Numbered from the stretch's first letter, positions 7,150 through 11,903 are shown. The stretch: DNA of 64,000 nt from Patescibacteria group bacterium (GCA_038064195.1 JBBTTO010000003.1:43029-107028); one strand, 5' to 3'. Program-made: numbers and translations. The notes: a model not told the origin generated them from the letters alone.

Positions 7150-7404
7150 CTAATTGGGGAGGACTCCAAGCAGCACGGTAACTTCATCATTAACAACTGA
7201 AAGCATCCCGCGCGTTACATCGTAGGATTTTTTTTCGCCGGGGAGATGGATTTCAACTTTGTTCAGGATAAGGGAGATAAAATGCTCATGTCCTGACAGA
7301 ATATCAAATGATCCTTTCTCATTGCGAGAGGAGACAGCCTCAGCATCTCCGGTAAATAATACGCCGGTTCGATCATGAACAGTAACTTTAAGAAATTGTG
7401 ACAT
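7150..7404 (-). CDS. atpC: F-type ATP synthase epsilon subunit (short form)
   Basis: 84 aa immediately downstream of beta. The N-terminal beta-sandwich pattern (LKVTVHDRTGVLFTGDAEAVSSRNEKGSFDILSGHEHFISLI) resembles epsilon. Confidence 0.7.
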   Translation of the reverse strand: MSQFLKVTVHDRTGVLFTGDAEAVSSRNEKGSFDILSGHEHFISLILNKVEIHLPGEKKSYDVTRGMLSVVNDEVTVLLGVLPN

Positions 7405-7406
7405 AG

Positions 7407-8798
7407 TTAGTTTTTACTTTCCTGCAGCCTACCGATATTCCTGAGGCGCGTTTCATCTATGTCATCGGCTTTTCCATCCAGGATAGCTTTTAAGTCCTCA
7501 AGAGTATCTTCACGTTTTATAAATGATCCGGGCTTGCCTGTCTGTTCCGCGGCGACAAAAAAGTTTTGTGTTAAGTAAGCCCGCAGCTTGCGTGCCCTAT
7601 GGTACAGGAGCTTGTCGTCCTGAGATAACTCAGTTTCGCCAACAAGTGACACAATTTTTTCGAGTTTTTGCGCTTCTTTAATAAGATGCTGTGATTGCAG
7701 CACGATTTCAAAATGTTTTTCTCCGACAATACTAGGGTGAAGCGCAGTTGAAGTCGAGTTGAGGACATCAATAGCAGGCAGGAGGCCTTCCTGATACTGT
7801 GTGCGTGAGAGGACGACAATTGAGTCAAGATACGGCAGGACACTCTGGACAGCCTGATCCAGCATGTCGTCATTGGGAACGTAGATCGCCTCGATACTTG
7901 TGATTGCGTGTTCTGTTGAGGCAAGCCTCTCATGAAAAGAAGCCATCTCAGTATGGAGGGTGGCTTGATAGCCGTCCTCTGAGGGGATCATGTTAGTCAT
8001 GAGGGATACCTCGTTGCCTGCCTGAGCAAAACGAAAGATGTTATCGATAAAGAAAAGCACGTCTTTTTTGAGCTCATCCCGGAAGTACTCGGCCTGGGTG
8101 AGTGCAGTAAAAGCAGTCAAATGTCTGACAGCAGGACTTTCATTCATGGAACCAAAGATGAGCGAGACATCCTTAAGCACTTTATTATCTGATAATACTT
8201 CGAAGAGTTCCTGACCTTCCCTGATGCGCTCTCCGACGCCCGCAAAGACAGAGACAGTTTCCCTTGCGTTAACTATGACGACATTATGGATAAGTTCGGT
8301 CAGAAGGATAGTCTTGCCGACACCCGCGCCGCCAAAGAGTCCAAGCTTACCCCCTCTGACTAATGGACAAAAGGCATCGATGATTTTGATACCTGTCTCA
8401 AGCAAGTCCTGATGGACAGTAATATCTGAGTACTTAGGCTTGGCGCGATAGATACTCCAGTGATGCTTTGCGTGTTCCTGTTCTTTGTCATCGAGCGGAC
8501 GACCGAAGATATCCAGGACACGGCCTAAATTCTGTTTGCCGACAGGAACACGAAGTGGGTGACCGGTTGAGATGACCACGTCACCTGATGCGAGGATACT
8601 GTCGGTTAAGAGCAGGCAAAGTGCCTTATGAGGATCACCATAACTGCGAACCTCAAGGAGTGCCTCTGTATCATTTTCAAGATGAAGGATCGTTGATAGA
8701 GCAGGTACATCTGATGAGAACAGAACTTCGATAATTGAACCTCTCATAGCGACGATTTTTCCTTTTATATGCTTCATGGTCTTTAGTGTATATTCCAC
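7407..8798 (-). CDS. atpD: F-type ATP synthase beta subunit
   Basis: P-loop [18 protein letters not shown], a DELSEED-region analogue ETELSQDDK, and typical length (463 aa). Confidence 0.95.
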
Positions 8799-9616: not shown

Positions 9617-11088
9617 GGGTTGTCGGCGAAAATGTCATTAGCGGTTTTGCGAGCAAGTTGGCCGGCCTCAAAGAGCGAAGAAGACAGCTCAACCTTTCCA
9701 ACCTTTTCTCTGACAGTAGAGTGTTTGGAAGTAAGCGCATGAAGCCTGTGAAGGTCTGAGAGTAACGTATCATTTTCTGATGTAATCCAGTACCCGTCCC
9801 AGACCAGCGCGATCATAAAAAACTGAAACCAGCTCTCATAGTTGCCAAGTTGCGGGAGATTGAAAAGAAGAGATAATTTGTCTGCTTTATGCAATGTGTC
9901 TTTAGCATCAGCAGATAGCTCCTGACTAAAATGACTAATCTGTAATAACCGTTCCGCTTGACTGAGAAAAGAGGTAACTGTTGAGATCGTTTCACGCATG
10001 AGCGGGGTCCTGGTCTGTCTGCCAACACGGGTTACTGACAGGAAGGGGTGAATAGCCGGGCGTTGTCCTTCCAGAAAACGTTCTTCGTCAAAGTATAAAT
10101 GCCCGTCTGTCATGGACATGAGGTTGGTCTGAATATAACCGGTGAGATCTCCCTGCTCTGTCTCGGCAATAGGAAGACAGGTTATAGAGACTGTTTTATC
10201 GTCAGTTATTTTGAAATTTCCCGCTCTCTCAAGTAATCTGGCATGCAGGTAGAAAATATCGCCCGGGTAGGCGTTTCGTCCGGGGAAGCGGCGGGCCAGG
10301 AGTGAGAGTTGGCGGTAAGCACGCGCGTGAGTAGTTACGTCATCCAAAACGATAAGGGTATCCTGTCCCATGTCTCTAAAGTATTCAGCGAGTCGCATGC
10401 CGCTAAAAGGAGTCAGCAGGATAAGTCCGGCAGGATCTTCAGGAGACGAGGCAATGATAACTACTTTTTCCAGACATTCGTGCTCTCGTAGTGTTTGAGC
10501 CATTGCCTTAACCGATGAAAGGGGCTTACCAATTGAGACATAAATACAGATTGTACCTAATCTGGCCTGAGTGATGAGTGTATCTTTAGCAAACTGCGTC
10601 TTTCCTGTTTTTCTGTCTCCTAAAAGTAATTCACGCTGGCCCATGCCAAGAGGAAGGAGTGTATCGACAAGGAGCGATCCGGTGAGACATTGTGTCTTTA
10701 TCTTCGCCCGTCGGCTGATCCCGCTTGCCTTTATTTCGACCTCAAGCGGTTCTGGTGTCCGCATCCGGTATGAACTTATGTAGTCATCTCCTAAGGGTGA
10801 AACAATCTTTCCCAGCAGATGCTCACTGGCTGGGAACATGACGCGTTCACCTGTTCTGACAGCTTTTATATCAGGAGTAGGTGGGTCACCTTTAATAAGG
10901 ACAATTTGACTACTCTCCTGGCCGATACTAAAGACAAATCCAATCGCCTCATTCTCAAGGAGGATTTTCTCATTAAGGAGTACTCCTTTGAGCCCTGAGA
11001 CAGTAAATAGGTGTCCATCGGCCGTTATGACAATCCCTTGTGGAAATTGCTTTTGAGAATAGGCCGCGAATGTTTCCTGTTCTGTCAT
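9613..11088 (-). CDS. atpA: F-type ATP synthase alpha subunit
   Basis: Walker A GDRKTGKTQFAKDTLITQ and an alpha-type N-terminal beta-barrel. 491 aa. Confidence 0.95.
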   Translation of the reverse strand: MTEQETFAAYSQKQFPQGIVITADGHLFTVSGLKGVLLNEKILLENEAIGFVFSIGQESSQIVLIKGDPPTPDIKAVRTGERVMFPASEHLLGKIVSPLGDDYISSYRMRTPEPLEVEIKASGISRRAKIKTQCLTGSLLVDTLLPLGMGQRELLLGDRKTGKTQFAKDTLITQARLGTICIYVSIGKPLSSVKAMAQTLREHECLEKVVIIASSPEDPAGLILLTPFSGMRLAEYFRDMGQDTLIVLDDVTTHARAYRQLSLLARRFPGRNAYPGDIFYLHARLLERAGNFKITDDKTVSITCLPIAETEQGDLTGYIQTNLMSMTDGHLYFDEERFLEGQRPAIHPFLSVTRVGRQTRTPLMRETISTVTSFLSQAERLLQISHFSQELSADAKDTLHKADKLSLLFNLPQLGNYESWFQFFMIALVWDGYWITSENDTLLSDLHRLHALTSKHSTVREKVGKVELSSSLFEAGQLARKTANDIFADNP

Positions 11089-11132
11089 ATAAGTTTATGT
11101 TTTTATCTATTTCGATAGATATTGATATGGTA

Positions 11133-11903
11133 TTAGATAACGAGCATGAAATAGGCTACTCCGACTCCGACAAGGATGATGAGTGCTGCCAGAATAACAT
11201 GAAAGACTACGCTCAGAAGGATAAGTTTACCAGCCAGGGGGTTGCGTCCGATAGCTTCAATGCCAAGTGATGAAATTTTGCCAAAAAAGGTTACCGCGAT
11301 AAAAAATGAGGCTATGATAAGAGCCGCGGCGAAAAGATAACGGAGCGCGTTAAGGGGGGAGAGGTAAGGGGCAGTGAGAGCAGTTTGAAATGTACTGAAA
11401 AGATTTTGCTTAACCCCACCTGATTCGGCATTAAAACTGATATTAAGAACAACAAGTATCTTCCCGATAGCTTTGCTGTCTTTTGCCGTGTAATCCTGGA
11501 TAGCTGTTCCTATGACATAACCGTCACTCGTGGCTTTTTGTCCGACTCCAGGTATACTTGAGGCGGTAATGAGATCGCCTCGCTTGATTACTCCGTTGAT
11601 AGTTGAGACTCTTACATGGACTTTTCCCGTGGATATGACAGGCTTGGTGTTAGGAAGAGCAGTATTCTCAAATGAAACGGAGGGATTTTCAGCGACAACG
11701 CCAAAGACGCTTGCCTCATAGCTGCTTCGGGTCAGGTCATAGCCATTTTTCGTCAGACGGATGATATCTCCTTCCTGAACCGGTCCTTTAAGAGGTATAT
11801 AGGTAGCAATTCCGCTGGATATTGCTTCTTGCGCGTGAGCCGGACGGGAAGCCAGTAAAGAGAGACTAAATACTATGAGTAGGATAGAACTGAATTTGCT
11901 CAT
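11133..11903 (-). CDS. Secreted/membrane protein leading the atp operon: signal peptide, soluble domain, and a C-terminal two-helix hairpin resembling an ATP synthase c-subunit but without the ion-binding carboxylate
   Basis: N-terminal MSKFSSILLIVFSLSLLASRPAHA signal. The C-terminus (ALIIASFFIAVTFFGKISSLGIEAIGRNPLAGKLILLSVVFHVILAALIILVGVGVAYFMLVI) has the Gly-rich helix 1 and an RNP loop like c-subunit 'ARQP'. Helix 2 has no Asp/Glu. It sits 45 nt upstream of atpA on the same strand. Confidence 0.35.
   Translation of the reverse strand: MSKFSSILLIVFSLSLLASRPAHAQEAISSGIATYIPLKGPVQEGDIIRLTKNGYDLTRSSYEASVFGVVAENPSVSFENTALPNTKPVISTGKVHVRVSTINGVIKRGDLITASSIPGVGQKATSDGYVIGTAIQDYTAKDSKAIGKILVVLNISFNAESGGVKQNLFSTFQTALTAPYLSPLNALRYLFAAALIIASFFIAVTFFGKISSLGIEAIGRNPLAGKLILLSVVFHVILAALIILVGVGVAYFMLVI

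Follow-up and report, generated by a model that had tools for sequence, protein, structure and literature searches.

An F1 ATPase operon of a Patescibacteria group bacterium led by a secreted protein whose c-subunit-like hairpin lacks the carboxylate

The closest described systems are the F1-like X0 ATPases of mycoplasmas, among which type 2 is the gliding motor G1-ATPase of Mycoplasma mobile, which serves giant gliding proteins, and type 3 is needed for antibody cleavage by MIB-MIP (PMC3369863, PMC12994834, PMC11864180). Both types are devoid of subunits b and delta and include a signal-peptide protein with two C-terminal transmembrane (TM) helices (PMC3369863, PMC12994834); in particular, MMCAP2_0577 and MMOB1650 begin with a signal peptide, continue with outer domains and end in a pair of TM helices (PMC12994834). 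Patescibacteria have no respiratory chains, yet an F-type ATP synthase is widely reported in them and the reason is an open question (PMC11665869, PMC13293708), while surveys score the F-type ATPase as present (PMC8672522). The subject of this work is an operon of a Patescibacteria group bacterium, located in a stretch of 64,000 nucleotides (GCA_038064195.1 JBBTTO010000003.1:43029-107028; hereafter the window, whose positions are used throughout), in which the genes of four F1 subunits follow the gene of a secreted protein with a c-subunit-like hairpin, here called c'. It is interpreted, with about even confidence, as a derived F-type ATPase that would be uncoupled from ions, consume ATP and act on a surface structure. 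Full-text searches of the literature on the ATP synthase of Microgenomates and Patescibacteria brought up no account of such a fusion or of this type of operon.

The five genes lie on the minus strand. The first encodes c' (11133-11903, 256 aa) and is followed after 44 nt by F1 alpha (9613-11088, 491 aa), which overlaps gamma (8783-9616, 277 aa; PF00231, E 1e-28) by 4 nt; beta (7407-8798) measures 463 aa when read from a GTG and 456 aa when read from the start preferred by gene callers, an ATG at 8777, and epsilon (7150-7404, 84 aa; PF02823, residues 5-78) begins 2 nt past it and has the N-terminal beta-sandwich only, without the C-terminal regulatory helices. The four F1 genes proposed by the initial annotation are all open reading frames (ORFs) on which Pfam and NCBIfam agree, and its statement that atpB, atpE, atpF and atpH are missing from the operon also holds, none of a, b, delta or an ordinary c being encoded there. 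The exact c' protein is found on a 1.076-Mb contig from Hainich groundwater, where NCBI annotates it as a hypothetical protein of a Patescibacteria metagenome-assembled genome.

The protein c' is composed of a signal peptide, a beta-rich domain, a short helix and two long helices spanning residues 183-220 and 222-255 (AlphaFold2 model, pLDDT 86). The signal peptide, residues 1-24 (MSKFSSILLIVFSLSLLASRPAHA; 11832-11903, minus strand), is of the Sec type with cleavage after AHA at residue 24, and its residues 3-18 are helical in the model. The outer, extracytoplasmic beta domain (residues 28-159; 11427-11822, minus strand), of about 130-150 aa, has the fold of phage auto-chaperone and capsid-cement proteins. 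The C-terminal hairpin (residues 183-255; 11139-11357, minus strand), delimited by the model and by profile alignments, turns at R220-N221-P222 (11238-11246). The signal peptide, the two-helix hairpin and the R-N-P loop had been recognised in the initial annotation, which gave the soluble domain about 170 aa when it is nearer 150 aa and called the first helix Gly-rich; helix 1, LRYLFAAALIIASFFIAVTFFGKISSLG, contains 3 Gly in 38 residues and the packing motif GxGxGxG is absent. The core of helix 2 has neither Asp nor Glu, as had been noted together with the presence of a His: the position of the canonical carboxylate is A240 and the His is H235. In one subfamily of c' an HTH_17 domain and a single TM helix stand in place of the signal peptide, an exchange that would leave the next domain extracellular; from these two variants, both termini of the hairpin are placed outside the cell. 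The protein shares with the subunit c family a hairpin of two helices whose loop is the polar R-(Q/N)-P and whose termini both lie outside.

The relationship of this hairpin with c subunits is supported by several observations. The top PDB sequence matches of the family profile are c subunits, at weak values (E 0.17-0.65), and a profile-profile alignment of the c' family with eight canonical c subunits, in which the PS3 sequence is identical to 1wu0_A, sets 69 columns in register (hhalign, P 4e-4, probability 35%). On Pfam ATP-synt_C (PF00137, cutoff 24 bits) the best family member, P0236, reaches 22.9 bits; the c' of the window gave no match to this family at E <= 10 and nothing meaningful in NCBIfam at the same threshold. 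Several members carry the label subunit c from the JGI pipeline, and in relatives c' fills the atpE position directly before b and delta, which argues for its c-like identity. On the register of the alignment, the near-cutoff Pfam scores and this position, the c-like hairpin of the initial annotation is retained, and judged by the same evidence the c' hairpin is derived from a c subunit. The loss of the carboxylate is a property of the whole family, since the corresponding position is non-acidic in 333/333 distinct sequences, being occupied only by I, L, V, A, F, G, T or M. In contrast, the cytoplasmic loop G(V/I)EA(I/L)GRNP is nearly invariant, with R in 333/333, N in 332/333, P in 333/333 and E216 in 323/333 sequences, while residue 235 is Asn in 247, His in 78, Ser in 7 and Gln in 1. 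A search of 1.84 billion proteins with the hairpin profile gave 626 matches at E <= 1e-3, and among the matches listed 150/150 belonged to the family, with no ordinary c; it also brought up the HTH-fused variants of c'.

The F1 part is divergent, as indicated by alpha (385 against 554 bits), gamma (79 against 194) and epsilon (36 against 67), which score well below their NCBIfam equivalog cutoffs, beta being the sole subunit to reach its own (atpD, 475 bits with a cutoff of 463). The features expected of an F1 are present: the subunits alpha, beta, gamma and epsilon, P-loop, catalytic Glu and arginine finger. The catalytic motifs of beta, including the P-loop and DNIFR, are intact and alpha has GDRKTGKT as P-loop and SVTRVG as arginine-finger motif; among family sequences the beta P-loop is exact in 61/64 and GER.REG in 62/64, and the arginine-finger motif of alpha is found in 64/64. 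The best PDB matches are bacterial F1 enzymes (beta about 400 bits, alpha about 286-297 bits), whereas the M. mobile G1-ATPase entries score lower (beta 292 bits, alpha 249 bits). The N-terminus of alpha was considered as a marker of the loss of delta and proved uninformative, being short in clades both with and without b and delta.

Homologues of c' number 310 in the protein collection searched and occur in 345 species-representative genomes of Levy-, Woese- and Shapirobacteria, WWE3 and further Patescibacteria of the Microgenomatia type. Such a range, at 40-60% identity and with 18 invariant columns, indicates strong purifying selection. The usual gene order, found in about 66 of 92 loci, is c'-b-delta-alpha-gamma-beta-epsilon, and the order c'-(b-delta)-alpha-gamma-beta-epsilon is kept across the 345 species genomes with genes that often overlap or abut; the position of the c' fusion upstream of alpha is therefore conserved in relatives, the point on which the initial annotation had called for a check. 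In the four relatives tested delta exceeds the cutoff of Pfam OSCP, and b, a coiled-coil protein with one TM helix, comes near the cutoff of ATP-synt_B. In a neighbour-joining tree built from alpha, beta and c', the operons that lack b and delta fall into two separate clades with longer branches: one includes the window and the related locus L004 and is nested among relatives that contain b and delta, the other L046, L048, L052 and L089, while L047, equally lacking both genes, was left out of the tree. At least two independent losses are therefore indicated. Read in this phylogenetic frame, the F1-only layout of the window is a derived state of an F-type operon that is itself devoid of subunit a and of the carboxylate.

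In L006 and about 13 other loci insertions of 1.7-2.7 kb separate c' from b; the one of L006 (4562-6680) encodes a phosphoglycerate mutase and a 23S_rRNA_IVP protein, and a 23S_rRNA_IVP gene is also placed between b and delta in L008 (5194-5556). Many records from L012 to L088 are titled "uncultured Gammaproteobacteria" or "Pseudomonadales", labels that are probably wrong.

The double loss of b and delta and the longer branches of those clades, together with the truncated epsilon and the report of some Microgenomates without any ATP synthase (PMC7143001), could suggest that c' and its giant neighbour (described below) stand beside F1 by history alone, F1 being a soluble or loosely bound ATPase or one in the course of being lost. 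This is very improbable, given the gene order kept in 345 species genomes with frequent overlaps, the intact catalytic motifs, the invariant cytoplasmic loop of c' and the occurrence of a split alpha or beta ORF in just five of about 80 loci (L039, L047, L055, L070 and L084).

The absences considered here hold for the window, 64 kb of a 1.08-Mb genome, and for the related loci examined. A tblastn of the 64 kb with b and delta of relatives and with two c subunits gave no match, and subunit a (PF00119) was found neither in the window nor in 92 related loci by ORF scan and precomputed Pfam lists. In the scan Pfam was applied to 10 of 31 ORFs with at least four TM helices; seven belong to other families (PAP2, peptidase M50, BacA, ABC-2, 7TM-transglutaminase) and three have no Pfam match. 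The window contains six such ORFs, and the four that were scanned are a PAP2, an M50 and two small ORFs with no Pfam match (four further multi-TM ORFs of the window, those of 755 aa and 500 aa among them, lay outside the scan); L076 also holds one multi-TM ORF of the latter kind. Two ORFs at 17740-18534 and 18509-19060 were rejected as candidates for b and delta, having no TM helix, no coiled coil and no similarity to either subunit. The extra "alpha" matches of L036 and L068 resemble, in our own reading of the sequences, the transcription terminator Rho and not a second F1. Searches for delta with a single sequence (2 matches) and with a clade profile (10 matches) retrieved none from the 1.08-Mb contig of the window, at low sensitivity.

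Split atp operons exist in other bacteria, and the locus could accordingly belong to an ordinary reversible F1Fo whose a and c, and here also b and delta, are encoded elsewhere, with c' as an accessory protein, an assembly protein or an extra component of the ring. In line with this possibility, beta passes the atpD equivalog cutoff, the window covers 64 kb of the 1.076-Mb contig and most Patescibacteria have an F-type ATPase according to reviews (PMC11665869). On the other hand, b and delta adjoin c' in about 66 loci and never a or an ordinary c, neither of which occurs in the 92 loci; the loop of c' expected to contact gamma and epsilon is under strict selection, as one would not expect if c' were just an accessory; the equivalog cutoffs of alpha, gamma and epsilon are missed by far, and the delta profile retrieved nothing from the contig, with the sensitivity given above. 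The loss of the carboxylate and the permanence of b and delta beside c' in most lineages make an Fo encoded elsewhere quite unlikely.

The second component associated with the operon is a giant surface protein. In the window it is encoded on the plus strand, divergently from c' (12130-15288; 1052 aa, or 997 aa from a start at 12295), and is a membrane-anchored protein with repeats and a Peptidase_S74 auto-chaperone domain, which scores 21.9 bits on Pfam S74 with a cutoff of 22. Its homologues include the giants of L004 (E 2e-104), L048 (4e-56) and L060 (1e-54), and also those of L047, L046 and L019, so that the partner is homologous across both clades without b and delta and several that contain them. 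Of the 70 non-redundant loci whose upstream sequence was long enough, 58, the window among them, have a giant gene within 2.5 kb and divergent from c'. The typical partner is built of an N-terminal MerR/HTH_17 domain, a single TM helix and a huge outer region. A homologue of the c' outer domain, of about 120 residues and with the motif GD.(I/L)T.S..PG...KA, is often contained in these giants, whose lengths run from 1,374 aa to beyond 3,200 aa, and in L019 it overlies a match to the Pfam Peptidase_G2 auto-chaperone. The place of the HTH_17 domain varies: about 55 loci have it on the giant, one subfamily has it on c', and in other loci it is a free gene past epsilon. In the HTH_17-c' subfamily the operon ends with the giant, whose start overlaps the stop codon of epsilon in two loci, L090 and L091, and lies 2 nt past it in L092. 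This movement of domains between c' and the giant, together with the fusion into one operon, argues that the two work together, and by these gene arrangements the giant surface protein and the MerR/HTH_17 module are probably part of the same system. The giant of L019 (2589-8723, minus strand) has, besides the N-terminal MerR/HTH_17 and the Peptidase_G2 auto-chaperone domain, FG-GAP (integrin-like) repeats. In L026 (4607-5560), L019 (8938-9879), L069 (8879-9838) and about 15 other loci, a gene of about 315 codons directly upstream of c' and on the same strand encodes a protein with a Fic motif, HPFSEGNGRLARLL, that is degenerate in part, and with a winged-helix tail at the C-terminus.

The auto-chaperone-like nature of the outer domain could also mean that c' is an aid to assembly or export, which folds, trimerises or anchors the giant fibre while F1 provides energy or a timing switch instead of a continuous mechanical output. 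Known auto-chaperone domains, such as that of endosialidase or of phi29 gp12, work in cis and need no motor in the membrane; moreover, a folding aid would hardly account for the retention of a full rotor-stator set (gamma, epsilon, b, delta), and the same fold is also that of stable trimeric cement proteins on capsids. This explanation is therefore doubtful.

Of the three explanations offered by the initial annotation (an Fo encoded elsewhere, an unconventional membrane sector or stator, a non-rotary F1), the second fits best. In ordinary F-ATPases the cytoplasmic loop of c touches gamma and epsilon, and c', the sole Fo-like partner in the operon, keeps this loop but not the mid-membrane carboxylate. 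In an ATP-consuming enzyme uncoupled from ions, ATP hydrolysis would turn or strain gamma-epsilon against an oligomer of c', and the force would be passed across the membrane to the giant protein and to the outer domains, arranged as a crown; its output at the cell surface might be adhesion, movement, remodelling or release, and b and delta, where kept, would serve as stator. In these episymbionts the giant partners are candidate host-attachment proteins.

Several points weigh against this interpretation. The statistics for the homology of the hairpin with c are weak (PDB E 0.17; hhalign probability 35%) and are complemented by gene context, and the formation of a ring by c' is not assured, given that the glycine motif by which c rings are packed is missing from helix 1. 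The clade of the window offers no recognisable stator, in which case alpha3 beta3 would spin in the cytoplasm without work on the membrane part, and the giant of the window has neither the shared outer domain nor the HTH. The absence of subunits was seen in 64 kb of a 1.08-Mb genome, and a, c, b and delta may lie in its remainder. Finally, these bacteria commonly have giant surface proteins, and the neighbourhood signal could be partly background, an objection weakened by the shared domain and the operon fusion.

A further extension, fairly unlikely at present, is that the operon represents a new class of surface motor in which F1 turns the c' oligomer and thereby rotates or cranks a trimeric giant fibre outside the cell. 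The oligomer could be a ring or a threefold bundle matched to the 120-degree steps of F1, the latter being conceivable because the outer domain has a trimer-forming fold and the glycine motif is missing; such a machine might have arisen from an ATP synthase that lost subunit a and the carboxylate and captured a phage tail-fibre chaperone domain. If this were true, the "F-type ATPase" scored across much of Microgenomatia would not be a bioenergetic enzyme but a rotary machine that is driven by ATP and delivers its mechanical output beyond the membrane. More generally, for the large branch that comprises the 345 species genomes with the fusion the enzyme appears unable to handle ions, so that reconstructions counting matches to alpha, beta, gamma and c as complex V would be wrong there. 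The operon would be the second case of an F1 recruited to power cell-surface proteins, with more of the ancestral parts kept (c-like hairpin, b and delta), and the arrangements c'-b-delta-F1, c'-F1 and HTH-c'-b-delta-F1-giant would offer a stepwise series for the conversion of a rotary ion motor.

With regard to the flanks of the operon, a promoter-like site (TTGACA-17-TAGAGT, 10/12 match; 11935-11963, minus strand) precedes the c' start codon by about 30 nt; it has the top score of the region in the promoter/terminator scan, in which such sites are as many as the shuffle expectation, and its position is consistent with a promoter of c'. On the other side, 110 nt past epsilon, a free gene on the minus strand (6825-7040) encodes a protein of 71 aa, MerR/HTH_17 by Pfam and BldC/excisionase-like by the NCBIfam BldC and excisionase models, which is a probable accessory or regulatory module. 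Beyond it, at 4100-6800, the GC content is higher (0.49-0.50) and short overlapping ORFs have no family matches; the gene content of this segment differs between strains of the same species (L001 and L003), and it therefore looks like a strain-variable island.

Elsewhere in the window a complete 16S rRNA gene (59009-60501, plus strand) has no 23S gene alongside, and tRNA genes at 61977-62175 (minus strand) and 35541-36371 (plus strand) form a cluster of four (Thr, Tyr, Thr, Trp) and a pair (Ile, Cys). In the SecE-NusG-L11-L1-L10-L7/L12 cluster (16577-21171, minus strand) the two ORFs without family already mentioned, 17740-18534 and 18509-19060, are inserted between L1 and L10, and rpoB and rpoC do not follow L7/L12. 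The GC skew is positive in 30 of 32 bins of 2 kb whatever the strand of the genes, with a steady cumulative rise to 2.4, a pattern reminiscent of the disparity between strands in a published Microgenomates genome (PMC7143001).

In comparison with known systems, the operon shares with canonical F1Fo (atpBEFHAGDC) the order of the common genes in most relatives, the catalytic residues and the c-type hairpin with its R-(Q/N)-P loop. It differs in that no subunit a was found in the loci examined, c' has neither the carboxylate nor the glycine motif of helix 1 and carries a secreted domain of some 150 aa as a fusion, epsilon is without its C-terminal helices and the window is without b and delta. 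N-type F1Fo, which is likewise a second and divergent kind of F-type operon, is approached by the sizeable scores of alpha and beta on its models, which stay far below the cutoffs (alpha TIGR03324, 310 against 750.5; beta TIGR03305, 450 against 752); moreover, N-ATPases keep subunit a and a c ring that bears the carboxylate. The fold of the c' outer domain is that of the C-terminal auto-chaperone of phi29 gp12 (3gqh) and of trimeric cement and decoration proteins (HFTV1, Sf11 gp40, TW1, BB1, XM1 gp53), from which c' is distinguished by its fusion to a membrane hairpin in a cellular operon with no phage context.

The nearest resemblance is with the mycoplasma X0 ATPases: in both cases F1-derived alpha, beta, gamma and epsilon occur in a genome-reduced, host-dependent bacterium without canonical Fo coupling and with a functional tie, here a presumed one, to large surface proteins, b and delta are missing (here in the clade of the window), alpha is without the delta-binding N-terminal helix, and the architecture of c' matches MMCAP2_0577 and MMOB1650, compared by their description only. 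In contrast, the mycoplasma systems are clusters of seven genes, one of them for a 12-TM protein and one for a small cytoplasmic protein, while here five genes are accompanied by no adjacent ORF with 12 TM helices and no small cytoplasmic subunit. In addition, b and delta are retained in most relatives here, the two-TM protein is recognisably derived from c by its RNP loop, its outer domain is of the phage auto-chaperone/cement type and the partner is an HTH_17-TM-giant protein. On the NCBIfam models of the mycoplasma enzymes alpha scores 222 against a cutoff of 520 and 327 against 600, and beta 380 against 570 and 353 against 850. Alpha and beta are therefore nearer to genuine F1 than to the mycoplasma models, which argues for independence, and the operon is probably an analogue of the mycoplasma X0 ATPases, not a member of the group, with its own origin from F1Fo within Patescibacteria.

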